Shown one piece after another: positions 10,655-33,956 of a stretch of DNA of 34,270 nucleotides; the first letter of the stretch is position 1; each line of letters starts with the position of its first letter. Where the stretch lies: the NCBI GenBank assembly GCA_964522905.1, contig CAZFXH010000279.1, forward strand, positions 1 through 34,270. Direction: 5' to 3'. Under the pieces are notes generated by a model. It did no database searches and was not told the DNA's origin. It saw nothing but the letters and a program-made list of their open reading frames with translations. The position numbers and the translations under genes are program-made. The stretch is from an uncultured Anaerolineaceae bacterium. Its GTDB lineage: Bacteria; Chloroflexota; Limnocylindria; Limnocylindrales; CSP1-4.

Positions 10655-13600
10655 ATGCGCGTCCCTGGCGGACCCGTCGTATCCTCGCTGCCGATGACCG
10701 CCCCGACCCGACCGCATCGCCGGACGCCCGCCGATCCCGACGGAGGGACGGGCGGGATCCACGAGCTCCTCACGAGCGCCGTCGAGGAGGCTGCCCGCCT
10801 GCTCGACGCGGACGGCGCGATGGTCTACCTCGTCGACCCCGCGACCGGGAACTTGCGGTTCGCGCATGACGCCGGCATCCGCAGCGAACGAAGCCGCGAC
10901 TGGGTGCGTGGCCTGGAGCTGGCGCCCGGGACAGGGATGTTCGGGCGTGCCCTCGTCGAGCGCGCCGTCGTCGTCACGAACGACTACGCGAACGATCCCT
11001 CGTTCCGCCACGCTCCGCAGACCGACCGCGTCGTCGAGGACATCGGGATCCGCTCGATGGTCGTGGCGCCGCTCGCGGCCGGCGACCAGGTCTTCGGGGC
11101 GATGGGTACGTTCTCCACCCGCGTCGACGCCTTCGACAAGGCCCAGATCGCGCTCGTCCGCTCGCTCGCGGATCACGCCGCCGCGGCCATGGCGAACACT
11201 CGCCTGATCGAGGATCTCGACCGGTCGCGCTCGGAGCTCGCCCATCGAGCCGAGGTCGAGCGAACGCTTCGGGAGATCAATGCCAGGATCTCGGCCGCGG
11301 CCGACCTCTCGAGCGTGCTGCAGCTCGCGGTCGACGAAGCGGCGCGCCTGTTGCACGCCGACGGTTCCCGGATCGACCTCGTCGATGCGGAGTCAGGCGT
11401 CCTCCGCTGGGCCTACGCCTCGGGCGAGGTCAAGCCCGACGACGAGGCGCGCTATGTCGATCCCGCCGACACACCCGAGCAAGGGATCGCCGGCCAGGCA
11501 TTGATCCAGGCGCGCCCGATCTGGACGGGCGATTACGCTGCCGACGAGAGCTTCCCGCACGGGCCCGGCGGCGACGCCTACGTTGCCGAATTCGGCATCC
11601 GCTCGGTCATGGCCGCGCCGCTGGTCGGGGAGGCTGGCCCCTTCGGCACGCTGTCGGTCTTCTCCACCCAGGCCGACGCGTGGCGTGACGCCGAGGCGGG
11701 CCTGCTCGAGTCGATCGCCGCGCAGGCGGCTATCGCCATCACCCGGACCCGGCTTCTCGATGAGCTCGACCGTTCCCGCAACGCCCTCGTCCGTCGCGCC
11801 GGAGCGGAGCAGGCGTTGCGCGAGATCGCGGCGCGAATCACCGCGATGCGCGATCCGTCGGAGATCCTCCAGCAGGTGGTCGAGCTCGCGAGTCGCCTGG
11901 TCGGCGGGCAGGGTGCGATCCTCGACATCCTCGAGCCCGGCACCGACCGGTTGCGCTGGGCGTTCGACGACGGCCTGCGGCACCTCTTCTCCGAGGAAGA
12001 GCGGGCGAAGCTGTGGATCTCGGTCGGCGAGGGCGCGACGGGGACGGCCGTCGCGGAAGACCGGGTGGTCGTCGCCGGTGACGACCTGGCGGCGCTGTTC
12101 CCGCCCAGCCCCGAATCGAGCGCCTTCTACGATCGCACCGGGTTTCGCTCGATGATCGCCGCGCCGATCACCGGTGAGCATGGCCCGCTCGGCGTCATCG
12201 AGGTCTACGCGGTGGTGCCGGACGCCTTCGACGGCGAGGACTCGGCCCTCATCCAGGCGCTCGCTGGTCAGGCCGGCATCGCCATCACGAACGCGCGGCT
12301 CATCGACGAGCTCGAGCGGTCGCGCGAGGAGAACGCCCAGCGCGCGGACGCTGAACGGACGCTGCGCGAGATCGCTGTCCGGGTCTCGTCGATCCTCGAC
12401 CCCGACACGGTGCTGACCCGGATCGTGGCGGAGTCCGCGCGCCTGCTCGACTCCGATGGAGCCCGCATCGACCTCTGGGACGAGGGGCTCGGAGCGTTGC
12501 GCTGGGCCTACTCGTCAGGCGATGCGATGTCCGAGGTCCCCGAGTGGGGTCGGACGGGTGGGCTCAAGCCGCGCCAGGCCGTGGCCGGTCTCGCCTTCGC
12601 CGAGCAGAAGCCGATCATGACCGAGGATTTCCTGGCGGACGAACGGTTCGAGACGACCCCCGAGATCGAGGCGTTCGTGCGTAAGGCCGGCATCCGCTCG
12701 GTCATCTCCGTGCCCTTGACCGGCGAGGGCGACGCTCCCCTCGGCGTGCTGTCGGTCGTCTCCCGTGAGCCCGGCGCCTACACCGACACCGAGGTCGAGC
12801 TGCTCACCGCCCTTGCCACACACGCCTCCATCGCGATCACGAACGCGAACCTCATGGAGCAGCTGGCCCGCTCGCGCGAGGACATCCAGCGGCGTGCGGA
12901 GGCCGAGGCCAGCCTGCGCCAGATCGCCGCGCGCATCACCGCGCTGCGCGAACCCGACGAGGTCCTCCAACACGTCGTCGACGAGGCGCGACGGCTGCTG
13001 CGCGCCGACGGTGCCCTCATCGACCAGTACGACCCGGAGAGCGGCACGCTCCAGTGGGCCTACGACGCCGGGCTCGAGCCCGACCAGCGCGAGGCGGTCA
13101 AGATGACCAACCTGCGCCTGGGTGAGGGTGTGTCCGGCAAGGCCGTGGCGGAAGCCCGGGTCATCCACGCCGGCGACTACCTCGAGGGCGAGTTCCGCCA
13201 CGACGAGCTCGCGGACTCGCTGGTCGAACGGGCCGGGGTGCGGGACCTGATCGCGGCCCCGATCATCGGCGAGGCGGGCCCGCTCGGCGCCATCGAGGTG
13301 ATGAGCCGGCGTCCGCACGCGTTCGACGACCTCGACGCGACGGTCCTCGGCGGCCTGGCGGAGCAGGCGGCCATCGCGATCACGAACGCGCGCCTGATCG
13401 ACGAGCTGGAGCGCTCGAGGCTGGCGCTCGCCCGGCGGGCGGAGACCGAGCGGTCGCTGCGCGACATCACGGCCCGGATCGCCGCGCTGACGGACCCCGA
13501 CGAGGTACTCGAGCGCGTGGTCGAGGACGCCAAGCGGCTGCTCGCCACCGACGGCGCGCACCTGACCCGGATGGGGCCCACGGGGACGTACCTCATCCCG

Positions 13601-16189
13601 GTCGTGGTGACCGGCGCGGGCGACGATGCCACGCGCGAATGGCTCCTGGGCATGCAGTTCCCGCTCGGGGCGGGCATCAACGGCCTCGCCGCGCAGGACA
13701 GAGCGCCCGCCTGGACCTTCGACTACGTGGCCGACCCACGGATCCCCCACGAGCCGGACGACGACTCCGTCGCGGCGCGACTCGGATTGCGTGGCATGGC
13801 CGCGACGCCGCTCCGCGCGCCCGGCGGCGAAGTCATCGGCACGCTCGCGGTCTCGACCGCGGAGCCGCGCATCTTCGAGGCCGACGACCTCGACCTGCTC
13901 CAGGGCCTCGCCGACCAGGCGGCGATCGCGCTGACGAATTCGAACCTCCTCGCCCGTCTGACCCGCGAGGAAGCCCGCTTCCGGGGTCTGGTCCAGACGA
14001 CCCCGGACGTCATCTGGCAGGCCGATCGCGAGGGCTACTTCACCTTCGTCGCGGATTCGGCCGAAGGGCTGTTCGGCTGGCCGGTCGAGGAGATCATCGG
14101 GCAGCACTTCGCCTTCCTCACCGCCCCCGATTCCATGCCCGTCGCCATCAAGTCGTATGCGGCCGTCGGCGCCGACCCAGAGCTCGTCGAACGCGTGCCC
14201 CTGACCCTGGTCCGTCGCGACGGGTCCACCTTCGCGGCCGAGGTCACGACGTCGGGCGTCTTCGAGGATGGCAGCTGGGTGGGTGCCCAGGGCACCGTCC
14301 GCGATGTCGGCGTGCGAGAACGGCTGGAGCGCGAGCTGCGCGATTCGGAGGAGCGCTACCGGTTTCTCGTCCAGAACGCCCCGGACCTGGTCTGGTCGAT
14401 CGGGCCCGACGCGCGTCTCACGTTCCTCTCGGATGCCGTGGAGCGGCTGACCGGCTTCCGGCCCGAGGAGCTCCTGGGCCAGCATTTCGGGGCGATCGTC
14501 CACGCCTCGTCGAGCGACGTGGCGGAGATCGACTGGACGGCCGCCATGAACGCGCCATCGCAGGAGGTGCGCGGTCGCATCAATCTCCAGCACCGCGACG
14601 GATCAGCGGTCCCGGCCGAGTTCATCGCCGTGGCGACGCTGGCCGAGGACGGCACGTTCGCGGGCGCCAACGGAGCCGTGCGCGACATGCGCGAGCGCGA
14701 CCGACTCGAGCGCGAGCTGCGGGCCTCCGAGGACCGCTACCGGACCCTGGCCTCGTCGTCGCCGGACCTGGTCTTCGCGACCGACGGGCAGGGTCGCTAT
14801 ACCTTCCTGTCCGATCGGGCGCAGACGACGCTCGGCTGGGATCGCACCGCGGCGATCGGCCGTTCGTTCATGGAGTACGTGGCCCCGGGCTTCGAAGCGG
14901 CGGCCGCCGCCAGCCACCAGGCGGTCCTCGATGCCCCCGAGCAGGTCCACTCGTCGCGGATGGACTTCCTTGACGGGTCGGGCAAGGCCGTCCAGCTCGA
15001 GATCAACGTCGTCGGCAAGGTCGAGGACGGCGAGCTCGTCGGGATCAACGGCGTGGCGCGCGATGTGTCCGAACGCGAGCGACTCGAGCGCGAGCTCATC
15101 CGATCGGAGGAGCGCTACCGGTTCCTCGTGCAGAACTCCCCGGACGCCGTCTTCTCCACCGACGTCGACGGGAACTTCACGTTCATCTCGGCGGCGATCG
15201 AGCGCCTGACTGGCTACACGGGGAGCGAGCTCGTCGGGAAGCGATTCGGGACGATCGTCGACGCGGAGGACCTCCAGGTCGCGGGCGGTCGCTGGGAGGA
15301 GCTCGTGACGGACCCGGACCACGAAGTCCAGGCCGCCCAGGTGCTGCGCGGTCGCGACGGTCGACGCACTCCGGTCGACGTCCGCGCGGTCGGCATCACG
15401 GTCGATGGCCGGTTCGCGGGCATCCAGGGCGCGGCACGCGACGTGAGCGACCAGGTCCGCCTGGAGCGCGAGCTGCGCCGCCAGGCCGGCGAACTGGCCG
15501 CCGGCGAGGAGCGGGCGCACCTCGCGCGCGAGCTGCACGACTCGGTCACCCAGGCGCTGTTCTCGATGACCCTCGTGTCGCGCTCCGTCGAGATGCTGCT
15601 GGAATCCGACCCCGACACCGCTCGGACGCACCTGGCCCAGCTGCGCGAGCTGCAGCGCGAGGCACTCGCCGAGATGCGCGCGCTCATCTTCGAGTTGCGG
15701 CCCGGCAATCTCGAGCAGGACGGCCTGGTCCGAGCCGTCAAGACCCACAGTGCCGCGCTCCAGGGCCGGCTGGGCCTCCCGGTGGTCGTGGAGAGCGACC
15801 TCGAGGAGCGGCTGCCGCTGGCGGCGGAGGAGGTCCTGTACCGCATCGCCCAGGAGGCACTCCACAACGTCGTGAAACACGCCGCTGCCCGACAGGTCCG
15901 CGTCGAGATCCGTCAGCGCGAGGGCGGCGTCCGGCTGCGCGTCGAGGACGACGGCAAGGGGTTCGACCCGACCAGCGTGCCGGATGGCCACCTTGGCCTG
16001 GCCGGCATGCGGGCCCGCACGGAACGGGTCGGCGGCACATTCGCCTGTGAGAGCCAGCCCGGGTCCGGTACGTCGGTCGAGGTGGAGTTTGGCCCGGGCG
16101 TGCTCGCGGACCTGCGAGCCGCAGCGTCCGCCGGCGACGCCGCGCGCACGACCCCCCCGGCCGGGACCCCGTCGATCCGCGACGGATGA
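10655..16189 (+). CDS. soluble multi-domain sensor histidine kinase: 6 x GAF, 4 x PAS, HisKA_3, HATPase_c (NarX/DesK-type core)
   Basis: 1,844-aa ORF (alternative ATG 10694) with no TM segment. H-box EERAHLARELHDSVTQALF (His codon 15536-15538), N-box EALHNVVKHA, G-boxes DDGKGF and GLAGMRARTERVGG. Confidence 0.92.
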   Translation: MRVPGGPVVSSLPMTAPTRPHRRTPADPDGGTGGIHELLTSAVEEAARLLDADGAMVYLVDPATGNLRFAHDAGIRSERSRDWVRGLELAPGTGMFGRALVERAVVVTNDYANDPSFRHAPQTDRVVEDIGIRSMVVAPLAAGDQVFGAMGTFSTRVDAFDKAQIALVRSLADHAAAAMANTRLIEDLDRSRSELAHRAEVERTLREINARISAAADLSSVLQLAVDEAARLLHADGSRIDLVDAESGVLRWAYASGEVKPDDEARYVDPADTPEQGIAGQALIQARPIWTGDYAADESFPHGPGGDAYVAEFGIRSVMAAPLVGEAGPFGTLSVFSTQADAWRDAEAGLLESIAAQAAIAITRTRLLDELDRSRNALVRRAGAEQALREIAARITAMRDPSEILQQVVELASRLVGGQGAILDILEPGTDRLRWAFDDGLRHLFSEEERAKLWISVGEGATGTAVAEDRVVVAGDDLAALFPPSPESSAFYDRTGFRSMIAAPITGEHGPLGVIEVYAVVPDAFDGEDSALIQALAGQAGIAITNARLIDELERSREENAQRADAERTLREIAVRVSSILDPDTVLTRIVAESARLLDSDGARIDLWDEGLGALRWAYSSGDAMSEVPEWGRTGGLKPRQAVAGLAFAEQKPIMTEDFLADERFETTPEIEAFVRKAGIRSVISVPLTGEGDAPLGVLSVVSREPGAYTDTEVELLTALATHASIAITNANLMEQLARSREDIQRRAEAEASLRQIAARITALREPDEVLQHVVDEARRLLRADGALIDQYDPESGTLQWAYDAGLEPDQREAVKMTNLRLGEGVSGKAVAEARVIHAGDYLEGEFRHDELADSLVERAGVRDLIAAPIIGEAGPLGAIEVMSRRPHAFDDLDATVLGGLAEQAAIAITNARLIDELERSRLALARRAETERSLRDITARIAALTDPDEVLERVVEDAKRLLATDGAHLTRMGPTGTYLIPVVVTGAGDDATREWLLGMQFPLGAGINGLAAQDRAPAWTFDYVADPRIPHEPDDDSVAARLGLRGMAATPLRAPGGEVIGTLAVSTAEPRIFEADDLDLLQGLADQAAIALTNSNLLARLTREEARFRGLVQTTPDVIWQADREGYFTFVADSAEGLFGWPVEEIIGQHFAFLTAPDSMPVAIKSYAAVGADPELVERVPLTLVRRDGSTFAAEVTTSGVFEDGSWVGAQGTVRDVGVRERLERELRDSEERYRFLVQNAPDLVWSIGPDARLTFLSDAVERLTGFRPEELLGQHFGAIVHASSSDVAEIDWTAAMNAPSQEVRGRINLQHRDGSAVPAEFIAVATLAEDGTFAGANGAVRDMRERDRLERELRASEDRYRTLASSSPDLVFATDGQGRYTFLSDRAQTTLGWDRTAAIGRSFMEYVAPGFEAAAAASHQAVLDAPEQVHSSRMDFLDGSGKAVQLEINVVGKVEDGELVGINGVARDVSERERLERELIRSEERYRFLVQNSPDAVFSTDVDGNFTFISAAIERLTGYTGSELVGKRFGTIVDAEDLQVAGGRWEELVTDPDHEVQAAQVLRGRDGRRTPVDVRAVGITVDGRFAGIQGAARDVSDQVRLERELRRQAGELAAGEERAHLARELHDSVTQALFSMTLVSRSVEMLLESDPDTARTHLAQLRELQREALAEMRALIFELRPGNLEQDGLVRAVKTHSAALQGRLGLPVVVESDLEERLPLAAEEVLYRIAQEALHNVVKHAAARQVRVEIRQREGGVRLRVEDDGKGFDPTSVPDGHLGLAGMRARTERVGGTFACESQPGSGTSVEVEFGPGVLADLRAAASAGDAARTTPPAGTPSIRDG
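10760..13945 (+). other. array of six tandem GAF modules (~183 aa / ~550 nt period)
   Basis: Each module ends AIAITNARLIDELERSR-x8-RAEAERxLREIAARI. The joint leucines fall at residues 184, 367, 549, 733, 914 and 1098 (nt 11204, 11753, 12299, 12851, 13394, 13946). Confidence 0.85.
13961..15450 (+). other. array of four tandem PAS modules
   Basis: Each is introduced by ERYRFLVQNxPD or EARFRGLVQTTPD and closed by G-x-VRDV/M-x-ERxRLERELR. Joints lie near nt 14320, 14695, 15072 and 15452. Confidence 0.85.
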
Positions 16190-16275
16190 CGTAGCTCGGG
16201 CCGGTCGTTCCGCCGACGGCTCCTCGGTCGAAGGTCGCTTTCGTTCACCCGTGCCGAGGGGCCACCATCTGAGGC

Positions 16276-16677
16276 ATGTCCGCCCTTGACGCCCGGTCCG
16301 ATGTGCCGCTGCGCATCGTGGTCGTCGATGCCGATGACCGGGTCCGCGAAAGCCTGATCGGACTGCTCGAAATCGGCGATCAGGTCCTGGTCGTCGGAAG
16401 CTCGGGCCAGGCGGAGACGGCGCTTGCCCTGGCCCGCGAGCATCGGCCCGACGTCGTCGTCGTCGACCCACGCCTGCCCGAAGTCGATGGCGGCGTGAGC
16501 TTCATCGGCGAGCTGCGAGTCTGCTGCCCGGACATCCGGGTCCTCGCCATGAGCTGGTCGGACGCCCTCGAGCGCCCGGCCATGGACGGGGGGGCCCACG
16601 GCTTCGTCCGCAAGACCTTCCGACCCACGGAGCTGATCGCCGCGATCCTTGCGGCGGGTCGGCCCGTCGACGCCTGA
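16276..16677 (+). CDS. stand-alone response-regulator receiver (REC-only) protein
   Basis: 133 aa with acidic pocket VVVDADD, phospho-acceptor context DVVVVDPRLPEVDG, Ser in VLAMSWS and Lys in GFVRKTF. There is no output domain. GAGG RBS. Confidence 0.85.
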   Translation: MSALDARSDVPLRIVVVDADDRVRESLIGLLEIGDQVLVVGSSGQAETALALAREHRPDVVVVDPRLPEVDGGVSFIGELRVCCPDIRVLAMSWSDALERPAMDGGAHGFVRKTFRPTELIAAILAAGRPVDA

Positions 16678-16756
16678 GGAGCCCGCTTTGCTAGACTCGT
16701 CGCCGTCCCCAACGATCCCGCCCACCAGCAGCGGCGCGACTGCGCCGGGAGCCGAC

Positions 16757-17422
16757 GTGAACGACAGCGCCCAGATCCGCGTGCTCATCGTCGACGACCA
16801 TGCGGTCGTACGCACGGGGCTCAAGGTGTTTCTCGACTTGCAGCCCGACATGGAGGTCGTGGGCGAGGCCGCCGACGGCTCGGAGGGCGTGGCCATGGCA
16901 CGCCGGCTGGAGCCTGACGTCGTCCTGATGGACCTCCTGATGCCGAACATGGACGGCGTGACCGCGATCGGACGCATCAAGGGCGAGCACCCGGAGATCG
17001 AGATCGTGACCATGACCTCCTTCATCGAGGAGGAGCAGGTCACCTCCGCCCTCGAAGCCGGAGCGTCGGGCTATGTGCTCAAGGACGCCGAGGCCGAGGA
17101 GGTCGCGGCGGCCGTACGCGCGGCTCACGCCGGCGAGGTCCACCTCGATCCGGCCGTGGCTCGCCTTCTCGCCCAGCGCATGCGCGATCGCAAGTCCCCC
17201 AAGGACGAGCTGGCGGAGCCGCTGACCGAGCGCGAGAAGGACGTGCTCCGCCTGCTGGGCCAGGGGATGTCCAACAAGGAGATCGGCTCCACCCTGTTCA
17301 TCACGGAGCGGACCGCCCGGACGTACGTCTCGAACATCCTGGGCAAGCTCGGGCTGGCATCGCGGACACAGGCAGCGCTGTACGCGGTCGAGCACAAGCT
17401 CGTGGACGCCCCGGGAGTCTGA
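16757..17422 (+). CDS. NarL/FixJ-family response regulator (REC + LuxR-type HTH)
   Basis: GTG 16757. IRVLIVDDHAVVR, DVVLMDLLMPNMDG, and the HTH LTEREKDVLRLLGQGMSNKEIGSTLFITERTARTYVSNILGKLG. Confidence 0.9.
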   Translation: MNDSAQIRVLIVDDHAVVRTGLKVFLDLQPDMEVVGEAADGSEGVAMARRLEPDVVLMDLLMPNMDGVTAIGRIKGEHPEIEIVTMTSFIEEEQVTSALEAGASGYVLKDAEAEEVAAAVRAAHAGEVHLDPAVARLLAQRMRDRKSPKDELAEPLTEREKDVLRLLGQGMSNKEIGSTLFITERTARTYVSNILGKLGLASRTQAALYAVEHKLVDAPGV

Positions 17423-24459: not shown

Positions 24460-24489
24460 TTGACATTGGACTGGTGATGTGTGCATCAT
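24460..24489 (+). promoter_or_regulatory. candidate promoter of the MocR gene (TTGACA-N18-CATCAT), possibly giving a leaderless or near-leaderless mRNA
   Basis: Perfect -35 TTGACA (24460-24465) and a -10-like CATCAT (24484-24489). In-frame ATGs sit at 24488 and 24497. The inverted repeat GTCCAAT (24430-24436) / ATTGGAC (24465-24471) overlaps the -35. Confidence 0.4.
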
Positions 24490-26077
24490 GACGAGTATGA
24501 ACGACCAGTCCAATAGCCAATCAGACACAAGTGGACTGAAAAGGCAATCGATGGTCTCCGCTGCCACGCTCGTCGAGCTGATCGGGCCATGGGCGGACGG
24601 TGCGGACCCGCTCAACGAGCAACTCGCCGGGGCGCTCGCGCGAGCCATCGACCTCGGCGTCCTGCCGCCCGGGACCCGCCTGCCGGCCGAGCGCGAGCTG
24701 GCGCGCGAACTGGCCCTCAGCCGCACGACGATCGTCGCCGCCTACGACCGCCTCCGGCTGGCGGGCCTGGCCCGAAGCCGCCAGGGGAGCGGCACCCGGG
24801 TGGCGGCGCGTCGACCGGGCCTGACCCAGGCCTACCTCGCCCCCCTGGCCGAGATGGAGTCGGACGCCGTGCTGATGCCGACCGTCGGCGGACCCATGTC
24901 TACCGCCACGACCACGGCCGCGACGGCACCGGCCGTCGGCCTGCTGACCCCGCTCATCGACGACGCCATCGAGCTCACCATCGGCGCGCTTCCGGCCGGA
25001 TCGATCGTTGCCGAGGCGATGGCGGCGGCTGTGAGGGACGACCTTCCGACCCTGCTCCTCGACAGCGGCTACGACCCGTTCGGCCTGCCGGCCCTGCGCA
25101 GCCAGATCGCCGCCTACCTGACCCGCCTCGGTGTGGCCACGGATCCCGACCAGGTACTCGTCACGAGCGGTGCGCAGCAGGCGCTCCATCTCATCGGATG
25201 GCAGCTTGGTGGACCCGGGAATGCGATCGTGATGGAGAACCCGAGCTATATCGGGGCCATCGACGCCTTCCGGACGACCGGCAACCGGCTCATCCCGATC
25301 CCGGTGGACGACGACGGCGGCCGGGTCGAGGTCATCGGCCTGCTCGGAGCCAGCGCACCCGTCCGACTCGTGTACGTCATCCCGACCTTCCAGAATCCGA
25401 CCGGCTCGGTCATGCCGGAGGGGCGCCGTCGCGAGCTCGCACGCATGGCCTTGGAGGCAGGCTTCCTGGTCGTCGAGGACCTCACGCCCGACCTGACGCT
25501 CGGGGTCGGCAGCCCGCCGCCCATCGCCGCCTTCGATCCGGGCGACCGGGTCATCACCGTCGGCTCGCTGAGCAAGCTCGCGTGGGGCGGACTCCGCGTC
25601 GGGTGGGTGCGCGCGTCGCGGTCGATCATCGATCGGTTGGTCGCCGGGAAGATCGTCGCGGACCATTCGTCGAGCCTCGTCACCCAGGCGATCGGCGCAC
25701 GGGTGTTCGAGCGGCTTGACGACGTCGCCGCCCGGAGCCGGCAGGCAGCCGCGGAACGGCGGTCCGTGCTGATGGAGGCGCTCGCCACCCGGCTGCCCGA
25801 CTGGACCTGGACCGAGCCCAAGGGCGGCCTCTCCCTGTGGGTGCGCCTGCCCGGGACGGACGCCGTCGCCTTCAGCCGCCTCGCGGCGACACTCGGGGTC
25901 GTGGTCCGACCGGGTCCGCTGGCGTCGCCGGACGGCGGCTTCCGCGATCACATCCGGATCGCCTATGGCTCGGAACCGGACCGGCTCGTCGACGGGGTGG
26001 AGCGGCTCGCCGCGGCCTGGGCCGCGTACACGCCGGCAACCCGCTCGAGCCGCCCGTCGCTGGCCGTCAGCGTCTGA
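24488..26077 (+). CDS. MocR-subfamily GntR transcriptional regulator (wHTH + class-I aminotransferase-fold PLP domain)
   Basis: The wHTH is LPAERELARELALSRTTIVAAYDRLRLAGLARSRQGSGTRV. A long linker leads to an AAT-like domain with the PLP-lysine context GSLSKLAWGGLRVGWV. Starts at 24479, 24488 or 24497 are all possible. Confidence 0.88.
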   Translation: MTSMNDQSNSQSDTSGLKRQSMVSAATLVELIGPWADGADPLNEQLAGALARAIDLGVLPPGTRLPAERELARELALSRTTIVAAYDRLRLAGLARSRQGSGTRVAARRPGLTQAYLAPLAEMESDAVLMPTVGGPMSTATTTAATAPAVGLLTPLIDDAIELTIGALPAGSIVAEAMAAAVRDDLPTLLLDSGYDPFGLPALRSQIAAYLTRLGVATDPDQVLVTSGAQQALHLIGWQLGGPGNAIVMENPSYIGAIDAFRTTGNRLIPIPVDDDGGRVEVIGLLGASAPVRLVYVIPTFQNPTGSVMPEGRRRELARMALEAGFLVVEDLTPDLTLGVGSPPPIAAFDPGDRVITVGSLSKLAWGGLRVGWVRASRSIIDRLVAGKIVADHSSSLVTQAIGARVFERLDDVAARSRQAAAERRSVLMEALATRLPDWTWTEPKGGLSLWVRLPGTDAVAFSRLAATLGVVVRPGPLASPDGGFRDHIRIAYGSEPDRLVDGVERLAAAWAAYTPATRSSRPSLAVSV

Positions 26078-26142: not shown

Positions 26143-26757
26143 GTGGCCGAACTTCCCTCAGGCTCACCGCCGCCCCATCGCCCCAGCGCCCGATCGGCGC
26201 GTCGCCCGCGCTTCGTCCTGCCCGACGACCACCATGACGAGCGAGCCGGCGAACGCATCGAGGCGTTCCTCGAGGGCCCTCCGGTCCGCGCGCGGCGGAA
26301 CCGTCGCTCCCGTCACCTGCGGTCCGAGAGCCTTCGCCGCGTCCGACCCGTCGTGCCCATGGATACCCGGACCGACTGGGATATCGCGCTCCGCCACGAA
26401 GACGCGCGTGTCGCCCGCTACGGTCGGCCCGCGGCGATCCTGGCCGTCCGGCTGCGCATGGCCACGACCAGCGTCCTGGACCAGTACGCGCATCGCATCG
26501 GCGGGGTGATCCGTCAGCAGGCGCGCGAGACCGACCGGGTCACCCGCTTCGGTCCGGATCGGTTCCACGTCCTGCTGCCCGAGACGCTCGAGGCGGAGGC
26601 GACCGTGCTCGCCGAGCGAGTCCGCATGGCCTGTGTCGCCCTCATCCCGGGATCGCTGGGTTCCGAGGTGGAGGTCCTGGTTGCGTCGGCCAGCACGTCC
26701 CGTGGCGGCACCCTCGCCGAGGCGCTGCGCTCGGTCAAGGCCCGGCTCGAGAGCTAG
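26143..26757 (+). CDS. degenerate GGDEF-domain protein (GGDEF replaced by GPDRF), Arg-rich N-terminal region
   Basis: RYGRPAAILAVRL...DRVTRFGPDRFHVLLPETLEAEATVLAERVRMA matches the central GGDEF fold, but the signature and upstream metal-binding Asp positions are substituted. An internal ATG at 26359 is an alternative start. Confidence 0.6.
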   Translation: MAELPSGSPPPHRPSARSARRPRFVLPDDHHDERAGERIEAFLEGPPVRARRNRRSRHLRSESLRRVRPVVPMDTRTDWDIALRHEDARVARYGRPAAILAVRLRMATTSVLDQYAHRIGGVIRQQARETDRVTRFGPDRFHVLLPETLEAEATVLAERVRMACVALIPGSLGSEVEVLVASASTSRGGTLAEALRSVKARLES

Positions 26758-26779
26758 CTGGCTGGGAAGAACAGCTAGC
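26753..26779. terminator. hairpin whose two arms contain the stop codons of the convergent genes
   Basis: GCTAGCTG-N11-CAGCTAGC. TAG (26755-26757) ends the plus-strand gene and CTA (26775-26777) is the stop of the minus-strand gene. Confidence 0.5.
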
Positions 26780-27164
26780 GCACCAGCGTCTCGAAAAGAT
26801 GCTCCAGCTCCCCGGCGGGGTCGTCGGTGAGGCCGGTGTGCACGTCCGACGGCTGGATGATCGTGCTTGCCGGCGACACCAGCCAGTGGAAGCGCTCCGC
26901 GATCGACAGGCGCGCGATCGGCCCGCCGTCCGGATCCCCGCGCGCGACGCGTTCGATGGCCACGAGGTGCGGACGCACCGTCGACGGGTCCGTGTCGGGT
27001 GCCAGGGCCGTGAGGCGCGCTTCGTGGAGCTCCGTGCGGGCACCGATGTACGACTTCGACCGGCACAGCAGCACGACCCCGGCGTTCAGGCACTCCCCGC
27101 GCTCCACCCGGGGAACGACGCGGATGATCGCGTACTGGTAGGGACTACGCGGCTCGTCGGGCAC
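26775..27164 (-). CDS. DUF3037-family protein (129 aa)
   Basis: GTG 27162-27164 lies 6 nt after GGAGGAGG (27171-27178). YQYAIIRVVPRVERGECLNAGVVLLC, ERFHWLVSPASTIIQPSDVHTG and ELEHLFETLV match my recollection of DUF3037. It overlaps the upstream kinase gene by 20 nt. Confidence 0.8.
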   Translation of the reverse strand: MPDEPRSPYQYAIIRVVPRVERGECLNAGVVLLCRSKSYIGARTELHEARLTALAPDTDPSTVRPHLVAIERVARGDPDGGPIARLSIAERFHWLVSPASTIIQPSDVHTGLTDDPAGELEHLFETLVR

Positions 27165-27930
27165 GCTCGGCCTCCTCCACGAACGGACGTCGCGCTGCCA
27201 ACCGGCGCTCCAGGTAGCGAACGTAGGCGGCCCGTTGGTCGTCGGCGTCGCCCACGGCGGCATCGTCGGGCAGCCACAGGTCGGGGATCGCGGCGACGAG
27301 CCGCTCGAACAATCCGCGGTCGAGCGCGGCGGCCAGGCGGGCATCGGCCTCGTCGATCGGACCCGCGAACGGCAGCAGCACGTGATCACGAGTGCGCTCG
27401 AACGGACGCTCGGCGTGCGCATCGGGGTCGCGCCACGTGTGATGGACGTAGAGCGCGGCCCCATGGTCGATCAGCCACGTCCGGCCGTGCCAGATGAGCA
27501 GGTTGGGGTTCCCGGCCGTCCGATCCGGATTGGTGGTGAATGCATCGAGCCACACGACCGCCGCGGCGGCATCGGGATCGACCACGGGCGACGCCCCGGG
27601 GTTGAACGTCAGGGCACCCGGCAGGAAGTCGAGGCCCAGGTTGAGACCGCCGCTGCGATGGACAAGCTCCTGCAGCTCCTCGTCAGGTTCGGCGTCGCCG
27701 AGGCTGCCGTCGACATCGATCGTCACGATCTCGGGCACTGGCAGCCCGAGCGCCCGACCGATCTCGCCGGCCAGCCATTCCGCGACGAGCGCTCGGGGAC
27801 CCTGGCCGGCAGCCCGGAATTTCACGACGTACAACCCGTCATCGTCGGCCTCGACGAGCCCCGGCATGGAGCCGCCCTCGCGCAGGGGCGTGACGTAGCG
27901 GGTGGCGGTCACGTGGCGCGGATGGGGCAT
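27145..27930 (-). CDS. HipA-like serine/threonine kinase-fold protein (261 aa)
   Basis: ATG 27930. LYVVKF (ATP-binding Lys), the catalytic-loop-like DAFTTNPDRTAGNPNLLIW (D..N) and metal-binding LIDHGAAL. No HipB-like HTH gene is adjacent. Confidence 0.75.
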   Translation of the reverse strand: MPHPRHVTATRYVTPLREGGSMPGLVEADDDGLYVVKFRAAGQGPRALVAEWLAGEIGRALGLPVPEIVTIDVDGSLGDAEPDEELQELVHRSGGLNLGLDFLPGALTFNPGASPVVDPDAAAAVVWLDAFTTNPDRTAGNPNLLIWHGRTWLIDHGAALYVHHTWRDPDAHAERPFERTRDHVLLPFAGPIDEADARLAAALDRGLFERLVAAIPDLWLPDDAAVGDADDQRAAYVRYLERRLAARRPFVEEAERARRAA

Positions 27931-28083
27931 CGCGCCGGAGTCTAGCGCTCCACGACGCGTGCAGGTTCGCAACGGTCTGTGGGCAGTTCGGCACGTCGGC
28001 GGTTACGCTCTCCCGGTACCCTAGAGCCATCAGTCGTCGATTCGAGCCTGGCGCTGGCCGAACAAGATCGACCAGGAGACAAC

Positions 28084-29061
28084 ATGACTGCAACCGTTCG
28101 CCGGCTCGACCCCGGACAGGAACTCGACGCGGGCGAGGCGTTGGCCATGGATCAGGGCCTGCTCGTCGAGCTGGAACCCGAGGCGGGTCGCCTGTACGAC
28201 CGCCACGCCAGGGTCGCCCAGGAATGGTTTCCCCACGACTACATCCCGTATCGCCTCGGACGCGACTTCGACAAGGAGCCCTGGACGCCCGATCAGCCGC
28301 GCCTGACGGGTGTCGCACAGACCGCCTTCGAGATCGGCCTGCTGACCGAGGACAACCTGCCCTCCTACCATCGGCTCATCCACGGCATGTTCGGCCGGGG
28401 CGACGGCGCATGGATCAGCTGGGTCGGACGTTGGCCCGCGGAGGAGGGGCGCCACGCGATCGTCCTTCGCGACTACCTCACGGTCACCCGCAACATAGAC
28501 CCGATCATGCTCGAGCGGGGGCGGATGACGCAGCTCCAGCAGGGCTACGACCACGCCTCCCCGACTACCCTGCGCGGTCTCGCGTACGTGGCCTTCCAGG
28601 AGCTGGCGACCCGCATCGCCCATCGCAACACGGGGCGCTACTCGGACGACCCCGTCGCGGACAAGATCATGGTCCGCATCGCCGCCGACGAGAACCTGCA
28701 CATGGTCTTCTACCGCGACATCCTGGCGGCCGCCCTGAAGATCCAGCCGTCGGCGGCCGTGCGGGCGATCGCCGACGAGGTCCTCGCGTTCGAGATGCCG
28801 GGCGCCGGCATCCCCGGGTTCATCCGCAAGGCGGCGCAGATCGCCAAGGCCGGGATCTATGACCTGCGGGTCCACCACGACGAGGTCCTGATGCCGATCC
28901 TGCGCCACTGGCGCATCTTCGAGCTCGAGGGGCTCGACGCCGCGGCCGAGGAGGCCCGTGGTCGCCTGGCCGATCATCTCGCCAAGCTGGATGCGGCAGC
29001 GACGCGGTTCGAGGAGAAGGTCGCGAACTCGGGCTTTCCCCGGATCGCCTCCACCGGCTGA
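28084..29061 (+). CDS. acyl-ACP desaturase (soluble di-iron, DesA1/DesA2-like)
   Basis: ATG after AGGAG. LLTEDNLPSYH, di-iron motifs AEEGRHAIVL and AADENLHMVFY, and FQELATRIAHRNT. Confidence 0.9.
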   Translation: MTATVRRLDPGQELDAGEALAMDQGLLVELEPEAGRLYDRHARVAQEWFPHDYIPYRLGRDFDKEPWTPDQPRLTGVAQTAFEIGLLTEDNLPSYHRLIHGMFGRGDGAWISWVGRWPAEEGRHAIVLRDYLTVTRNIDPIMLERGRMTQLQQGYDHASPTTLRGLAYVAFQELATRIAHRNTGRYSDDPVADKIMVRIAADENLHMVFYRDILAAALKIQPSAAVRAIADEVLAFEMPGAGIPGFIRKAAQIAKAGIYDLRVHHDEVLMPILRHWRIFELEGLDAAAEEARGRLADHLAKLDAAATRFEEKVANSGFPRIASTG

Positions 29062-29976: not shown

Positions 29977-30162
29977 ATGGACCTGATCGAACTCACCCGC
30001 ACCATCCAGGCAGAGCGCGAACGGGAGATCGAAGCGGCGACCCGGACCGCCCGGCTGCTGGCGCCGGAGGAAACCTCGGAACCGCACGGCTGGCGACCGC
30101 GGTGGCTCCGACGGCCCGCAGCACCTCAGCGGCCGGTGTCCAGCGGCACGCTGTCGCGGTAG
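29977..30162 (+). CDS. candidate small ORF (61 aa), uncertain
   Basis: MDLIELTRTIQAEREREIEAATRTARLLAPEE... has a helical, protein-like first half and high GC3. It has no Shine-Dalgarno, and its Arg/Pro-rich tail overlaps the 3' end of the convergent WYL gene by 37 nt. Confidence 0.25.
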   Translation: MDLIELTRTIQAEREREIEAATRTARLLAPEETSEPHGWRPRWLRRPAAPQRPVSSGTLSR

Positions 30163-31124
30163 CGCTCGAGGATCCTGCCGGCGGTCCCCATCACCCGGTC
30201 GCGGATCTCGGCGGGTTCGAGCACCTCGAGGCTCGATCCGATCGACAGCAGCTTGCCTGGGACTTCGTCCGGCCAGGTCAGGGTCAGCCGAAGGCGCTCC
30301 CAGCCGTCGGGATCGGGCTCGTCCAGTCGCACGCCCGCAGCGAGGGTCGCCTGGCCGAACACGTCGGCGATCCGCCATTCACGGTCCTTCGGGATGCGGA
30401 CCGTGACCTCGACGGTGGGGACATCCCGCTCGTAGGCGGCGCTCGACTCCGCCCAGTACGCAGCGAGATCGAAGCCGGTCGGGCGTTCGACGCGCTCGTC
30501 GAGGACCATTGCCTCCAGGACCCGCGACGCTCGATACGTCCGGATCTGCCCGTCCGTGGCCGCGATCACGTACCACATGCCACCCTTCAGCACGAGACCC
30601 AGGGGAGCCACCGTCCGCTCGACCGGGTCGCGTGGGCCGGTGCCGCGTTCGTAGGTGATCCGCAGCGCACGGGCATCCCAGACCGCCGCCGAGAGAGTGG
30701 CGAGGTGCGGGACGGCGTCGCCCGCGTGGAACCAGCCGGCGACATCGAGATGGAATCGCTCCACGATGCGGGAGGCGCGCGAGCGAAGTTCCGGCGGCAG
30801 TGCGGCCATCACCTTGAGCTGGGCGGCCGCGACGACCGTGCCGAGACCCAGTTGCGCGGCGGGACCCGGGAGGCCGGCAAGGAACAACGCCTCAGCTTCG
30901 TCCGCGGTCATGCCCGTGAGCCGGGTGCGGTAGCCGTCCACGAGCCGGATCCCACCGAGCGGACCGCGCTCCGCGAAGATCGGGACCCCGGCGGCGCTCA
31001 ATTCCTCGACGTCCCGATGGACGGTCCGGACCGACACCTCGAGCTCGCGTGAGAGCTGGGCCGCGGTCAGGCCGCCACGGCTCTGGAGCAGCAGGAGCAG
31101 GTTCACGAGACGGGACGCGCGCAC
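30126..31124 (-). CDS. YafY/PafBC-type transcriptional regulator (HTH + WYL + WCX domains)
   Basis: GTG 31122-31124. HTH RLVNLLLLLQSRGGLTAAQLSRELEVSVRTVHRDVEELSAAGVPI, and WYL core VAPLGLVLKGGMWYVIAATDGQIRTYRASRV. Confidence 0.9.
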   Translation of the reverse strand: MRASRLVNLLLLLQSRGGLTAAQLSRELEVSVRTVHRDVEELSAAGVPIFAERGPLGGIRLVDGYRTRLTGMTADEAEALFLAGLPGPAAQLGLGTVVAAAQLKVMAALPPELRSRASRIVERFHLDVAGWFHAGDAVPHLATLSAAVWDARALRITYERGTGPRDPVERTVAPLGLVLKGGMWYVIAATDGQIRTYRASRVLEAMVLDERVERPTGFDLAAYWAESSAAYERDVPTVEVTVRIPKDREWRIADVFGQATLAAGVRLDEPDPDGWERLRLTLTWPDEVPGKLLSIGSSLEVLEPAEIRDRVMGTAGRILERYRDSVPLDTGR

Positions 31125-31143
31125 GGACGAAGCATAACGACAG

Positions 31144-31164
31144 ACATGACAGACCCTGTCATGT
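31144..31164. promoter_or_regulatory. perfect palindrome ACATGACAG-ACC-CTGTCATGT 20 bp upstream of the WYL regulator start
   Basis: 9-bp arms with a 3-bp spacer, inside the 54-bp gap between the PAC2 stop (31179) and the WYL start (31124). A candidate autoregulatory operator. Confidence 0.5.
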
Positions 31165-31178
31165 ACCGTCGCTCCTGT

Positions 31179-32048
31179 TCAGCTGCGGGGCTGGCCCTCG
31201 GTGCCGCCTTCGCGGAGGAAGCGCTCGATCTCCCCGATGAGGTCGTCGCCGGACGGGAGTCGCTGCTCGTCGACCAGCAGCTCGAGTCGCTCCACGTACT
31301 CCCGGGTGCTCTCCTCGAGGGCGGTCGCGGTGTCCAGGCGCGTGCGCAGCTGCTGCGCCTCATCGGCGAGGTCGCCGGACGGGAGCACGACGTCGAGGTG
31401 GCGGCCGAGTGCGATGAGCAGCTCGACGGAGGCGGCCGGGTACGGCCCGGAGACATAGTGGGGTACCTGGGCGAAGTAACCGACGGCCGGGATGCCGCTT
31501 TCGGCCATGGCCATCTCGAGCACGCTGACCGTCGCGGCCGGCACGCGCAGGAGCCCGGCCGGCCCGGGACGCACGTCCCCGCGCAGGCGGCCGGCCTCCG
31601 AGGTCGTCCCCAGGATCGGCACGGACCGGGTGTGCGGTACGGCCGCCGGGATGGCCCCGAGACTGATCCACTCGACCACGCCAAGCCGTTGCGCGATCTC
31701 GACGACCGCGGCGCGGAACCCCTGCCACTTATCGTCCGGTTCGGGCCCCGCCAGGACGAGCAGGTCGCGCTCCGAGACCCGGACCCGCCGGATCGCGAGC
31801 TCGGGCCAGTCCAGCTCCGCCAGTCGACCGTCCACGATCTTGAGCGTCGGACGGCGGGCGCGGTAGTCGAAGAGGGCATCCGCGTCGAAGGTGGCCACGA
31901 TCGGGGCGTCCTCGACGAGGTGATCGAGCGCGGTGGTGGCCGCACTACCGGCATCGACCCAGCCGTCGAAGGCGCCGACCATCGTCGGTGCGATGAGGTC
32001 GCCGGGATCCCCAGGCACACCCGGCCCAGCCAGCTGGTACAGGCTCAC
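31179..32048 (-). CDS. PAC2 (proteasome-assembly-chaperone-like) family protein
   Basis: GTG 32048 gives VSLYQLAG...LIAPTMVGAFDGWVDAGSAATTAL...FDYRARRPTL...LVLAGPEPDDKWQGF, a typical actinobacterial PAC2 pattern. The start is uncertain because no SD is present. Confidence 0.8.
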   Translation of the reverse strand: MSLYQLAGPGVPGDPGDLIAPTMVGAFDGWVDAGSAATTALDHLVEDAPIVATFDADALFDYRARRPTLKIVDGRLAELDWPELAIRRVRVSERDLLVLAGPEPDDKWQGFRAAVVEIAQRLGVVEWISLGAIPAAVPHTRSVPILGTTSEAGRLRGDVRPGPAGLLRVPAATVSVLEMAMAESGIPAVGYFAQVPHYVSGPYPAASVELLIALGRHLDVVLPSGDLADEAQQLRTRLDTATALEESTREYVERLELLVDEQRLPSGDDLIGEIERFLREGGTEGQPRS

Positions 32049-32177
32049 GGCGAAAGGATACGCGCGGCCCGGGATGGCGCCGCGGATCAGCCCGCCGTCG
32101 TCCGGGGCCGGAGAGCCGGCTCGTGGAAAAATGACACTCAGGACGTCCAGCGATGCACCAAGGAGGCCGATGACCTC

Positions 32178-32681
32178 ATGACCGATCCCACCCCGACCGC
32201 CGACCGCCCCAGGATCCCCACGGAATACGGCATCCCCAGATCGACGAAGGGCCTCCTGGCCTGGTCGCACCTCGTGGAGCGTCTGCTCGCCGCGACCGTG
32301 TACTGGGTCGCGACGTGCGGACCGGGCGGCGTCCCGCGGGTCCGCCCACTCGACGGCCTGTGGCACGCTGGCGTGCTGTACGTGGGCGGCAGCCCCAAGA
32401 CGCGCTGGGCGCGCGACCTCGCCGAGAACCCGCGGGTGGCGGTCCACCTCGACGACGGCGGCGACGCCGTGATCCTGGAAGGCGAGGCCGAACTGCTGGA
32501 GCATGGCGTCGACGCGACCCTGGCGGTCACCCTCGCCGAGCTGTCCAACGCGAAGTACCCGCAGTACGGGATGACCCCGGAGATGTACCGGGGCCCCGGA
32601 CAGTTCGCGATCCGCCCGAGGCTGGCGTTCGGGTGGACGAGCTTCCCCAGGGACGTGACCCGCTTCCGCTTCGACCGCTGA
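32178..32681 (+). CDS. pyridoxamine 5'-phosphate oxidase (PPOX)-family / F420- or FMN-binding split-barrel protein
   Basis: ATG 32178 lies 11 nt after AGGAGG. LLAWSHLVERLLAATVYWVATCGPGGVPRVRPLDGLWHAGVLYVGGSPKTRWARDLAENPRVAVHL is a typical PPOX-class fold pattern. Confidence 0.8.
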   Translation: MTDPTPTADRPRIPTEYGIPRSTKGLLAWSHLVERLLAATVYWVATCGPGGVPRVRPLDGLWHAGVLYVGGSPKTRWARDLAENPRVAVHLDDGGDAVILEGEAELLEHGVDATLAVTLAELSNAKYPQYGMTPEMYRGPGQFAIRPRLAFGWTSFPRDVTRFRFDR

Positions 32682-32708: not shown

Positions 32709-33956
32709 TCAGCCAGCTCCCTCGGCCGACGGCTCGGACTCCGCCGCGAGGAGGGCGACGGTCCGGCGCAGCCGGTCCGCCGGGTCGCCCTCGTGGTAGA
32801 CGCGCTCGGAGGGCTCGATCCGGTCGAGGAAGCTTCGATAGATGACGGCCTGCCGCGCGGCCGCGACCGGGGCAAGGAGTCGCGCGGCGCGCGTCGGATC
32901 GGCGCCAGGGACCATGCCCCGCCAGGCGGCGTCCCACCGCGCGCGAATCCCCGGCGCCTCCCCGGTCGGCGTGCGATCCAGGAATGCCGGCTGATCCAGC
33001 AGCGGCTGCCCGATGCCGCTGTCACCCCAGTCAAGGATGGTCATGGGGGCCGTCACCCCGTCGCCCCGCACGTTGCCTGGCGCGAAGTCGCCGTGGACGA
33101 TCGTGTCGGGCAGCCCGCAGGCCTCGACGGCCGCGAAGCGTGCGGGTAGTCCACGCAGGAAGCTGTCGAGCGTCGCGCGCTCGGCGGCGGCCAGCTGCTC
33201 AGCGGTTCGTTCGATGACGTCGGCCATCCCGGCAGGCAGGATCGTGCCGCGCCAATCCGGCAAGCCGATCGCGAGCAGCTCATCGACGCGCCCCGCCCAT
33301 GCCGCCTGGATCCGTACGAGGGCGTCGATCATCGTGAGCAGTTCGGTACCGGTCGCCTCGTAGCGATCATCGCCGGAGATCTCGGGCATGAGGATCCGTC
33401 CGCCGTCGGTCGCCAGCAGGACCGGCACGGGCTCGCCGGCCAGGCGTTCGATCATGGCGCCTTCGTGCGCGAAGAACTGCGGCACCACCTTGAGCCAGGC
33501 CGAGCCGGCGACGGTTGCCAGCTGCCAGATGCTCGACAGGTTCCAGGTCCGGATCTGCCTGGCGTCAGCGGTCCGCGGCCGACCGGCCCGGACAAGAACC
33601 GCATCCGCCCAGGCGAGGTCGGCAGCGGGGCCACCGACGTGCGCCCAGGGCAGGCGCAGAGGATGCTCGTCGAGGCGACCCGTCCAGGGGCGGACCGCCG
33701 CCCGCGCCGTCACGACATCCGGGGCGGCGACCTCGCCGAGATACGTCACCGCTCCGCCCGGGAAGCCCTCGCCATCGGTCTCGAGCAGGCGCAGGATCGT
33801 GGGCCGCAGCCCGAATCGTTTCCTGCAGGCGTCGACCACGGGCGCCGCGTCCTGCCACCAGGGAGACGAGACCGCCACGGTCGGCAACACGCCGATCACC
33901 GAACCGTCCGGTTCGACGAGGACGACGGTCGCGACGCGTGGCCTCGGCTGCGACAT
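32709..33956 (-). CDS. aminoglycoside-phosphotransferase-fold kinase with ~100-aa N-terminal extension
   Basis: Catalytic loop VHGDFAPGNV and metal-binding ILDWGDSGIG. Confidence 0.85.
   Translation of the reverse strand: MSQPRPRVATVVLVEPDGSVIGVLPTVAVSSPWWQDAAPVVDACRKRFGLRPTILRLLETDGEGFPGGAVTYLGEVAAPDVVTARAAVRPWTGRLDEHPLRLPWAHVGGPAADLAWADAVLVRAGRPRTADARQIRTWNLSSIWQLATVAGSAWLKVVPQFFAHEGAMIERLAGEPVPVLLATDGGRILMPEISGDDRYEATGTELLTMIDALVRIQAAWAGRVDELLAIGLPDWRGTILPAGMADVIERTAEQLAAAERATLDSFLRGLPARFAAVEACGLPDTIVHGDFAPGNVRGDGVTAPMTILDWGDSGIGQPLLDQPAFLDRTPTGEAPGIRARWDAAWRGMVPGADPTRAARLLAPVAAARQAVIYRSFLDRIEPSERVYHEGDPADRLRRTVALLAAESEPSAEGAG

Follow-up and report, generated by a model that had tools for sequence, protein, structure and literature searches.

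We analyzed a 34,270-nucleotide (nt) stretch of DNA, hereafter the window, that spans positions 1 to 34,270 of contig CAZFXH010000279.1 from an uncultured Anaerolineaceae bacterium (assembly GCA_964522905.1). Its minus strand carries a gene for a HipA-like Ser/Thr protein kinase that is followed by, and overlaps, a gene for a protein made up of a bare DUF3037 domain. The two genes form a tightly coupled two-gene operon, and on balance the locus is probably a short-partner homologue of the HipAD/DS-6/PDC-M66 kinase toxin-antidote system, the DUF3037 protein being the component that would bind and restrain an active kinase. This reading builds on gene structure, family membership, intact catalytic residues, the adjacency and overlap of the two genes, purifying selection, and synteny, all of which were observed in this analysis. 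The features of the operon are as follows.

27145..27930, minus strand: HipA_2-family (HipA-like) Ser/Thr protein kinase gene, 261 amino acids (aa), identified by its open reading frame (ORF), by Pfam, PADLOC, and PHROGs matches, and by fold
26775..27164, minus strand: DUF3037 partner gene, 129 aa, GTG start, bare DUF3037 domain
27145..27164, minus strand: overlap of the kinase 3' end with the partner 5' end, 20 nt, in different frames
27171..27178, minus strand: internal Shine-Dalgarno (SD)-like octamer GGAGGAGG, 6 nt before the partner GTG, in Glu-Glu-Ala codons of the kinase gene

A preliminary description of the window had reported two co-oriented ORFs overlapping by 20 nt and an SD-like octamer 6 nt before the downstream GTG; the coordinates bear out both statements and place the genes on the minus strand, which that description had left unstated. 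The kinase ORF starts with the ATG at 27930 and ends with a TAG at 27147..27145, and the partner ORF starts with the GTG at 27164 and ends with a TAG at 26777..26775. An alternative in-frame kinase start, a TTG at 27972, would give a product of 275 aa; close homologues are mostly 261 aa. Read along the minus strand, the order is GGAGGAGG-CCGAGC-GTG, with the octamer at 27178..27171 and a spacer of 6 nt. The peptides that had been quoted for the kinase (LYVVKF, NPDRTAGNPNLL, and IDHG) and for the DUF3037 protein are all present, in products of the lengths given. It was also correct that the kinase gene comes first, that there is no HipB or other helix-turn-helix (HTH) partner (the operon consists of the kinase and DUF3037 genes, with no HTH gene within it), and that the flanking genes are oppositely oriented: downstream lies a convergent plus-strand GGDEF-like ORF (26143..26757) and upstream a divergent plus-strand gene for an acyl-ACP-type desaturase.

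Pairs of HipA_2 kinase and DUF3037 genes have recently entered the literature as an anti-phage toxin-antitoxin system (HipAD/DS-6). One study found a HipA-like/DUF3037 pair, named PDC-M66 in PADLOC, beside Retron-Sda1 and showed that defense against phage Bas51 requires the kinase, whose deletion abolishes it, and not the reverse transcriptase (RT) or the noncoding RNA; because deletion of the DUF3037 gene was toxic, its authors concluded that the kinase is a toxin that the DUF3037 protein neutralizes (PMC12548924). A second study validated DS-6 (DefensePredictor), renamed HipAD, as an anti-phage system in which DS-6A is the kinase and DS-6B is a DUF3037 plus DUF1829 protein; a catalytic mutant of DS-6A loses defense, and AlphaFold 3 predicts an interaction of A with B (ipTM 0.76-0.79) and a weaker one with DNA (PMC13092281, which credits independent discovery of HipAD to Brenes & Laub 2025). 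Searching phage genomes with tblastn, we also found that Escherichia phage PhiR5_1 (PV340545.1) carries genes annotated as “HipA toxin” (249 aa) and “HipD antitoxin” (275 aa), which lie just after cI in the immunity region of a lambdoid prophage, kinase first and overlapping by 4 nt, and whose products match HipA_2 and DUF3037 (residues 7-125) in Pfam. The window kinase is 26% identical to PhiR5_1 HipA (BLASTP, E=3e-17), and the window DUF3037 protein is 22% identical to PhiR5_1 HipD (E=3e-8), aligning only with HipD residues 3-125.

The pair is thus already known as a kind, and the central claim of novelty in the preliminary description, that the module had not been characterized experimentally, fails: it corresponds to the PADLOC candidate PDC-M66, homologues have been validated as DS-6/HipAD (PMC13092281) and as the Retron-Sda1 neighbor (PMC12548924), and the PV340545.1 annotation names both components. 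NCBI names such proteins “HipA family kinase” and “DUF3037 domain-containing protein.” Like HipAD/DS-6/PDC-M66, the window pair consists of a HipA_2 kinase of ~250-260 aa followed by an overlapping same-strand gene whose product starts with DUF3037; the catalytic Lys, Glu, Asp, Asn, and Asp are common to both kinases, HipB is absent from both loci, and two genes suffice in the HipAD homologues tested. The Retron-Sda1 pair belongs to the same two families, but its DUF3037 protein has a C-terminal region like the retron type III-A1 DNA-binding protein, which the window partner lacks. The window pair has no associated retron, and none of the window genes scanned was identified as an RT gene.

To survey relatives, we scanned one genome per GTDB species with an 11-sequence DUF3037 alignment and found a relative in at least 586 species. 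The best 80 of these, together with two loci from exact look-ups, gave a set of 82 DUF3037-anchored loci from Chloroflexota, Actinomycetota (Gaiellales, Solirubrobacterales, Acidimicrobiia, and Streptomyces), Acidobacteriota, Pseudomonadota (Steroidobacteraceae), and Myxococcota. A HipA_2 kinase ORF lies directly upstream of the DUF3037 gene on the same strand in all 82 loci, across the five phyla, and a DUF3037 gene lies downstream in all three of the kinase-anchored loci. In 79 of these 82 loci the partner terminates within 0-10 residues of where its DUF3037 domain ends. An all-against-all BLAST of the locus ORFs, filtered by GC content at third codon positions, revealed no third conserved gene and no HipB substitute across phyla, the second-largest cluster being an antisense shadow ORF of the kinase and not a gene. 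The view that kinase and partner make up a self-contained two-gene module is therefore supported by the gene-neighborhood survey. Among close homologues (more than 100 clusters at 74-96% identity, the named ones coming from “Candidatus Limnocylindrales”/Chloroflexota metagenome-assembled genomes [MAGs]), lengths are almost invariant at 129 and 261 aa. We also searched 1.84 billion representatives exhaustively and obtained 1,719 DUF3037 clusters at E<=1e-3; nearly all of the nearest 150 are 125-140 aa long, so the short form is a common architecture.

Some individual loci in this set depart from the general pattern. Four of the five Streptomyces loci (L068, L071, L077, and L081) show no overlap between the two genes: ~71 nt separate the kinase stop from the DUF3037 domain that follows, and a search for an SD core found none there. 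A short-chain dehydrogenase gene is found just downstream of the pair in the same four loci and in L076, L039, L055, and L069, and the five Streptomyces loci are syntenic with each other (SBP_bac_5, UDG). In several long-read MAGs (L009, L011, L016, L040, and L086), the ORF for the kinase or for the DUF3037 protein seems to be split or truncated, through either assembly indel errors or pseudogene formation; if these cases represent real decay, they would bear on the dispensability of the pair.

The preliminary description had taken the octamer to imply translational coupling. The octamer alone is statistically ordinary, as GGAGGAGG occurs three times in the window (70.8% GC) against 2.86 expected and at least three times in 56 of 100 shuffles, so that the case for coupling is a comparative one. 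In 79 homologous loci, using predicted start codons, we found an SD core of at least 5 nt (mostly GAGGAGG) just before the partner start in 62 and a kinase/partner overlap of 8-23 nt in 70, the commonest overlaps being 20 nt (25 loci), 23 nt (14 loci), 14 nt (11 loci), and 17 nt (10 loci). On this comparative footing the suggestion of coupling stands. The SD-like motif doubles as the codons of a conserved Glu-Glu-Ala near the kinase C terminus (FVEEAERAR), so the conservation of its nucleotides cannot be credited to SD function alone, the two constraints being inseparable.

The kinase matches the Pfam family HipA_2 (PF20613) with an E value of 5.6e-21 and 75.3 bits (cut-off, 27), the PADLOC model PDC-M66A (E=1.4e-22, profile positions 12-244 of 270), and the PHROGs family phrog_3162 (E=6.6e-24). 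Pfam gave no match to HipA_C, HipA_N, or couple_hipA even at E<=1, and no NCBIfam model matches either the kinase or its partner. In an alignment of 27 diverse short-form kinases with PhiR5_1 HipA, a phage kinase that has been studied experimentally (28 sequences), E18, G19, K37, E51, D129, N134, D136, R137, N141, N143, and D155 are invariant. K37 is the predicted ATP-anchoring Lys, E51 the predicted helix-C Glu, D136 and N141 would form the catalytic-loop Asp-x4-Asn, and D155 is the predicted metal-binding Asp of IDHG; the Lys, Asp..Asn, and IDHG positions singled out in the preliminary description were therefore well chosen. The two aspartates D136 and D155 are 19 residues apart, a normal spacing for a kinase, and the Gly-rich loop reads E18-G19-G20-S21.

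An AlphaFold 2 (AF2) model of the kinase is of moderate quality (pLDDT 75, low in the catalytic and activation loops). Its best fold match is Helicobacter pylori CtkA (E=3.9e-5, probability 1.0, TM 0.46-0.50), followed by Fam20, PI4K-II-alpha, and, weakly, Shewanella HipA (E=0.11). Alignment of the kinase profile with Escherichia coli HipA by hhalign covered 22 residues, a single helix, at a probability of 2.5%, so the catalytic assignment rests on invariance, spacing, and fold; the kinase-only profile had no match among PDB sequences. With its residues intact and a kinase-like fold predicted, the window kinase is most likely catalytically competent.

The term “HipA-like” is apt for the Pfam HipA_2 match, the fold, and the motifs, but the window kinase is not a canonical HipA. 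The “HipA-type” label of the preliminary description thus stands as far as membership of HipA_2 goes and not beyond it, given the lack of a HipA_C match, the lack of usable profile similarity to E. coli HipA, and a best fold match to CtkA. Both the window pair and HipBA of E. coli K-12 combine a kinase-like Ser/Thr kinase carrying a Lys/Asp-x4-Asn/metal-binding Asp set with a small co-operonic protein that restrains it or, in the window, would do so. However, E. coli HipA is a protein of 440 aa with N-terminal subdomains that belongs to HipA_C/HipA_N, whereas the window kinase has 261 aa and belongs to neither family; and the E. coli antitoxin is the upstream HTH repressor HipB, whereas the window partner, encoded downstream, is a non-HTH protein whose fold is unrelated. 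CtkA (PDB 3AKK, 3AKL), the best structural neighbor, is likewise a compact bacterial Ser/Thr kinase of the HipA/CtkA branch, but it is only 12-14% identical to the window kinase in sequence, and the comparison depends on a moderate model. CtkA is a proinflammatory secreted effector, as the title of its PDB entry and the literature state. We know of no DUF3037 partner for CtkA.

The partner matches DUF3037 (PF11236) over the whole profile (positions 1-118 of 118; E=1.1e-42, 145.4 bits, cut-off 22.6), so the preliminary assignment of both proteins to their families is upheld by Pfam. Against the models of the longer partners it aligns only in part, with positions 4-128 of 281 of PDC-M66B in PADLOC (E=4.8e-9) and positions 3-129 of 279, the N-terminal half, of phrog_5137 in PHROGs. 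An AF2 model built from a 44-sequence alignment is very confident (pLDDT 96.5, pTM 0.88) and consists of three strands, four helices, two strands, and one helix. Foldseek found no match to this model at E<=0.001 among 350,542 PDB chains (best E=0.47, TM 0.23); the top matches were HORMA-domain proteins at a probability below 0.1, which is not significant, and we do not credit them. Among viral predicted structures, the model matches only uncharacterized phage proteins of 125-287 aa. In the short-form clade, the near-invariant residues are Y11, R15, V17, P18, R22, E24, N27, and G29 and, in the C-terminal part, R91, F92, W94, L95, S100, T101, Q104, H109, and G111. The N-terminal part of this set is also found in phage HipD.

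In HipBST, a shortened HipA-type kinase is neutralized in trans by HipS, a small non-DNA-binding protein of ~100 aa that resembles the HipA N-subdomain, and structures of HipBST are present in the PDB. The window locus differs in its reversed gene order, in having no HipB, and in that the DUF3037 model has no HipS-like PDB match. We considered whether DUF3037 might be a HipS-like module, that is, a HipA N-subdomain supplied in trans, and rejected the idea because DUF3037 has no significant fold neighbor in the PDB.

Longer DUF3037 representatives were considered as kinase-DUF3037 fusions, and this too was rejected: most are gene-call read-throughs or merges, and none is a convincing Rosetta-stone fusion. 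One metagenomic representative of 385 aa (P0333) has DUF3037 at residues 6-123 followed by a Fic/DOC domain at 228-324 and may be a real fusion or a merge of adjacent genes. P0334 (DUF3037 plus nitronate monooxygenase) looks like a gene-call merge, as does P0297, whose C-terminal extension resembles a pyridoxamine-phosphate oxidase by eye.

If the window locus is a short-partner HipAD homologue, a catalytically competent kinase would be kept inactive by direct binding of the DUF3037 protein, which would be made in step with it by means of the internal SD sequence and the start codon that overlaps the kinase stop. Loss or displacement of the partner, through stress, infection, or a block in translation, would then free the kinase to phosphorylate a cellular target and arrest growth. 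Direct binding, toxicity, the trigger, and the target at this locus are inferred by analogy with the long-form homologues. As the C-terminal half found in HipD is absent, any DNA binding, autoregulation, or trigger sensing performed by that half would be either absent here or accomplished in some other way.

Several observations weigh against this reading. The need for the kinase, the toxicity that follows loss of DUF3037, and the loss of defense in a catalytic mutant were each shown in long-form homologues only, and they carry over to the window by analogy. The window partner, at 129 aa, lacks the ~150-aa C-terminal half of HipD (DUF1829/DNA-binding-like according to PMC13092281 and PMC12548924), and the C-terminal DUF3037 motif of the short-form clade (R91, F92, W94, S100, T101, and H109) is largely absent from phage HipD. 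The pair remains 50-60% identical across phyla. In the window and in relatives with 77-92% kinase identity (L001, L002, L085, and L087), it keeps synteny with housekeeping genes, the shared block comprising PAC2, WYL/PafBC-like, DUF4112, and desaturase genes on one side and GGDEF-like, GntR-aminotransferase, HhH-GPD-like, and DEAD helicase genes on the other, and the amino acid identity of the pair declines in parallel with that of its neighbors. Values of dN/dS are 0.08-0.24 for the kinase and 0.10-0.24 for DUF3037, equal to or below those of the neighbors (0.11-0.44, at similar dS, with the desaturase left out of the comparison); the ratios are rough because dS (0.6-1.2) is near saturation. 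Among the window genes scanned we found no integrase, transposase, or known defense gene; the others there are unremarkable and encode an aldolase, a DNA glycosylase, an ABC transporter, a large histidine kinase of the GAF/PAS type together with a LuxR-type regulator, and APH-like kinases. A search of 2.9 million viral contigs with peptide patterns derived from the alignment used for the species survey found no short-form relative. Plasmid matches were few: of 10 records, mostly from megaplasmids or chromids, 8 are non-mobilizable. The validated long form, by comparison, is patchy, being present in 284 of 5,426 complete E. coli genomes and at >=99% identity in 282 of the 284; the distribution of phage-type hipAD in E. 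coli is that of typical prophage cargo. HipAD is thus prophage-borne and patchy, whereas the window pair is syntenic, vertically inherited, and was not found in viral contigs. The window locus sits in the chromosome of a Limnocylindria-type Chloroflexota genome, where it is stably inherited and not mobile cargo, and its genomic behavior is unlike that of a typical toxin-antitoxin or defense module.

Such stable, slowly evolving, nonmobile behavior favors a different account, in which the locus encodes a housekeeping signaling pair, a vertically inherited kinase with a dedicated DUF3037 regulatory subunit or substrate, and is neither a poison-antidote nor an anti-phage system; mobile long-form HipAD would then be its derived, weaponized relative, or the reverse. 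We regard this as the less probable account, though a serious one. Besides the conserved block shared by the window and its four relatives, the tracking of neighbor identity, the low dN/dS at neighbor-like dS, the fixed lengths in more than 100 close clusters, the cross-phylum identity, and the empty viral search, it is favored by the metabolic genes that adjoin the pair in other phyla and by the near-invariant polar residues of DUF3037 (R15, R22, E24, N27, R91, S100, T101, Q104, and H109), which suggest a specific functional site, such as one for a ligand or a phospho-acceptor. What speaks for the toxin-antidote reading instead is that the only experimental data for the family describe a toxic kinase neutralized by a DUF3037 protein and acting in phage defense (PMC12548924, PMC13092281). 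Moreover, chromosomal toxin-antitoxin pairs can be stably inherited too, and no conserved third gene or pathway neighbor points to a physiological role. A fuller form of the same idea, which we would put forward only tentatively, is that the short form is a cellular kinase/regulator pair of Limnocylindria-type Chloroflexota and close relatives in soil phyla (Actinomycetota, Acidobacteriota, and others), in which the ~120-aa domain, structurally unprecedented in that it has no fold neighbor in the PDB, alone serves as the specific controller or phospho-acceptor of a minimal HipA-like kinase, and that HipAD was derived from it by addition of a C-terminal DNA-binding/sensor domain.

It is unlikely that the DUF3037 protein is instead an enzyme, such as a phosphatase or phospho-lyase, or a small-molecule sensor that chemically reverses or gates the modification made by the kinase. 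Within its 129 aa, the clustering of near-invariant Arg, Glu, Asn, Ser/Thr, Gln, and His residues and the compact, very confidently modeled alpha/beta structure would suit such a role, and as no solved structure is related to the domain, analogy excludes no function for it. However, the C-terminal residues of this set are not conserved in phage HipD, even though HipD neutralizes its kinase (PMC12548924), Foldseek gave no match to any catalytic fold among PDB and viral predicted structures, and the tight coupling and conserved overlap fit a stoichiometric partner better than a catalytic one. It is very improbable that the locus is a cryptic HipBA system, an ordinary HipA served as HipB by one of the HTH regulators that lie within ~1-2 kb and are syntenic within the lineage (GntR/MocR-like, 24479..26077, or WYL/HTH, 30126..31124), because the kinase has no HipA_C or HipA_N match at E<=1, has 261 aa against the 440 of HipA, and aligns with E. 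coli HipA over just those 22 residues at 2.5% probability, because the HTH genes either lie on the opposite strand or have other genes between them and the pair and are not conserved beside it outside the lineage, and because the strictly conserved partner is DUF3037.

The window form is a natural minimal version of the HipA_2-DUF3037 pair, a kinase with a bare DUF3037 domain, and occurs in the genomes of at least 586 species; the papers on HipAD and Retron-Sda1 (PMC13092281, PMC12548924) deal with neither this DUF3037-only architecture nor its core-gene-like inheritance. If the minimal partner still neutralizes its kinase, the neutralizing function maps to DUF3037, and DNA binding or sensing would fall to the C-terminal half of HipD. 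If the short form is neither toxic nor defensive, the family spans housekeeping and immune roles, and should the housekeeping account be true, a housekeeping kinase switch and an immune toxin-antitoxin system would have arisen from one ancestor. In either case the short-form pair offers a compact, highly conserved system, well modeled in its DUF3037 component, for structural and biochemical work. It also carries a warning for annotation, in that matches of defense finders to PDC-M66-type models in soil bacteria may be to stable chromosomal genes and not to mobile defense islands.

Two further features bound the operon.

27931..28084, no strand assigned: divergent intergenic region between the kinase and desaturase genes, the presumed operon promoter region
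26753..26787, no strand assigned: hairpin-forming sequence at the convergent gene ends, read from the sequence and from a terminator scan

Judged from the sequence, the probable desaturase start is the ATG at 28085, which is preceded by AGGAG. A promoter scan found no sigma-70-type consensus, a result that is uninformative for a Chloroflexota-type genome. At the other end, the GGDEF-like ORF (plus strand) and the DUF3037 gene (minus strand) converge to within 17 nt of each other. An 8-bp inverted repeat, GCTAGCTG (26753-26760) and CAGCTAGC (26772-26779), includes both TAG stops, and a terminator-like stem with a T-rich tail was found on the minus strand at 26787..26774 (one found in the scan against 0.3 expected). 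This inverted repeat and stem may be a bidirectional terminator shared by the two convergent genes.

The GGDEF-like ORF itself (26143-26757, plus strand, 204 aa) has a partial, weak GGDEF match at residues 113-164 (E=3.6e-5) and so has the appearance of a diguanylate-cyclase-like protein that is degenerate or truncated. Although syntenic in relatives, it diverges more quickly than the genes around it (identity, 35-70%; dN/dS, 0.29-0.44), and there it is called at 115-202 aa or is fused with an F420H2_quin_red domain (L086 and L087). On the far side of the operon, a PAC2-family (proteasome-assembly-chaperone-like) gene adjoins a gene for an HTH_11-WYL-WCX (PafBC-like) regulator at 30126-32504 on the minus strand, an arrangement that belongs to a block conserved among these Chloroflexota-type genomes and is also found in L001, L002, and L085-L087, with PAC2 lying between two WYL regulators in L087, and that recalls the PafBC/proteasome neighborhoods of actinobacteria. 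Two genes for APH-family (aminoglycoside-phosphotransferase-like) kinases, both on the minus strand (4686-5798 and 32709-33956), are unrelated to the HipA_2 kinase. The region 10655-17422 on the plus strand encodes a giant sensor histidine kinase of 1,844 aa, in which six GAF domains and several PAS domains precede HisKA_3/HATPase_c, and after it come an ORF of 133 aa (16276-16677) and a gene for a LuxR/GerE-type response regulator (16649-17422).

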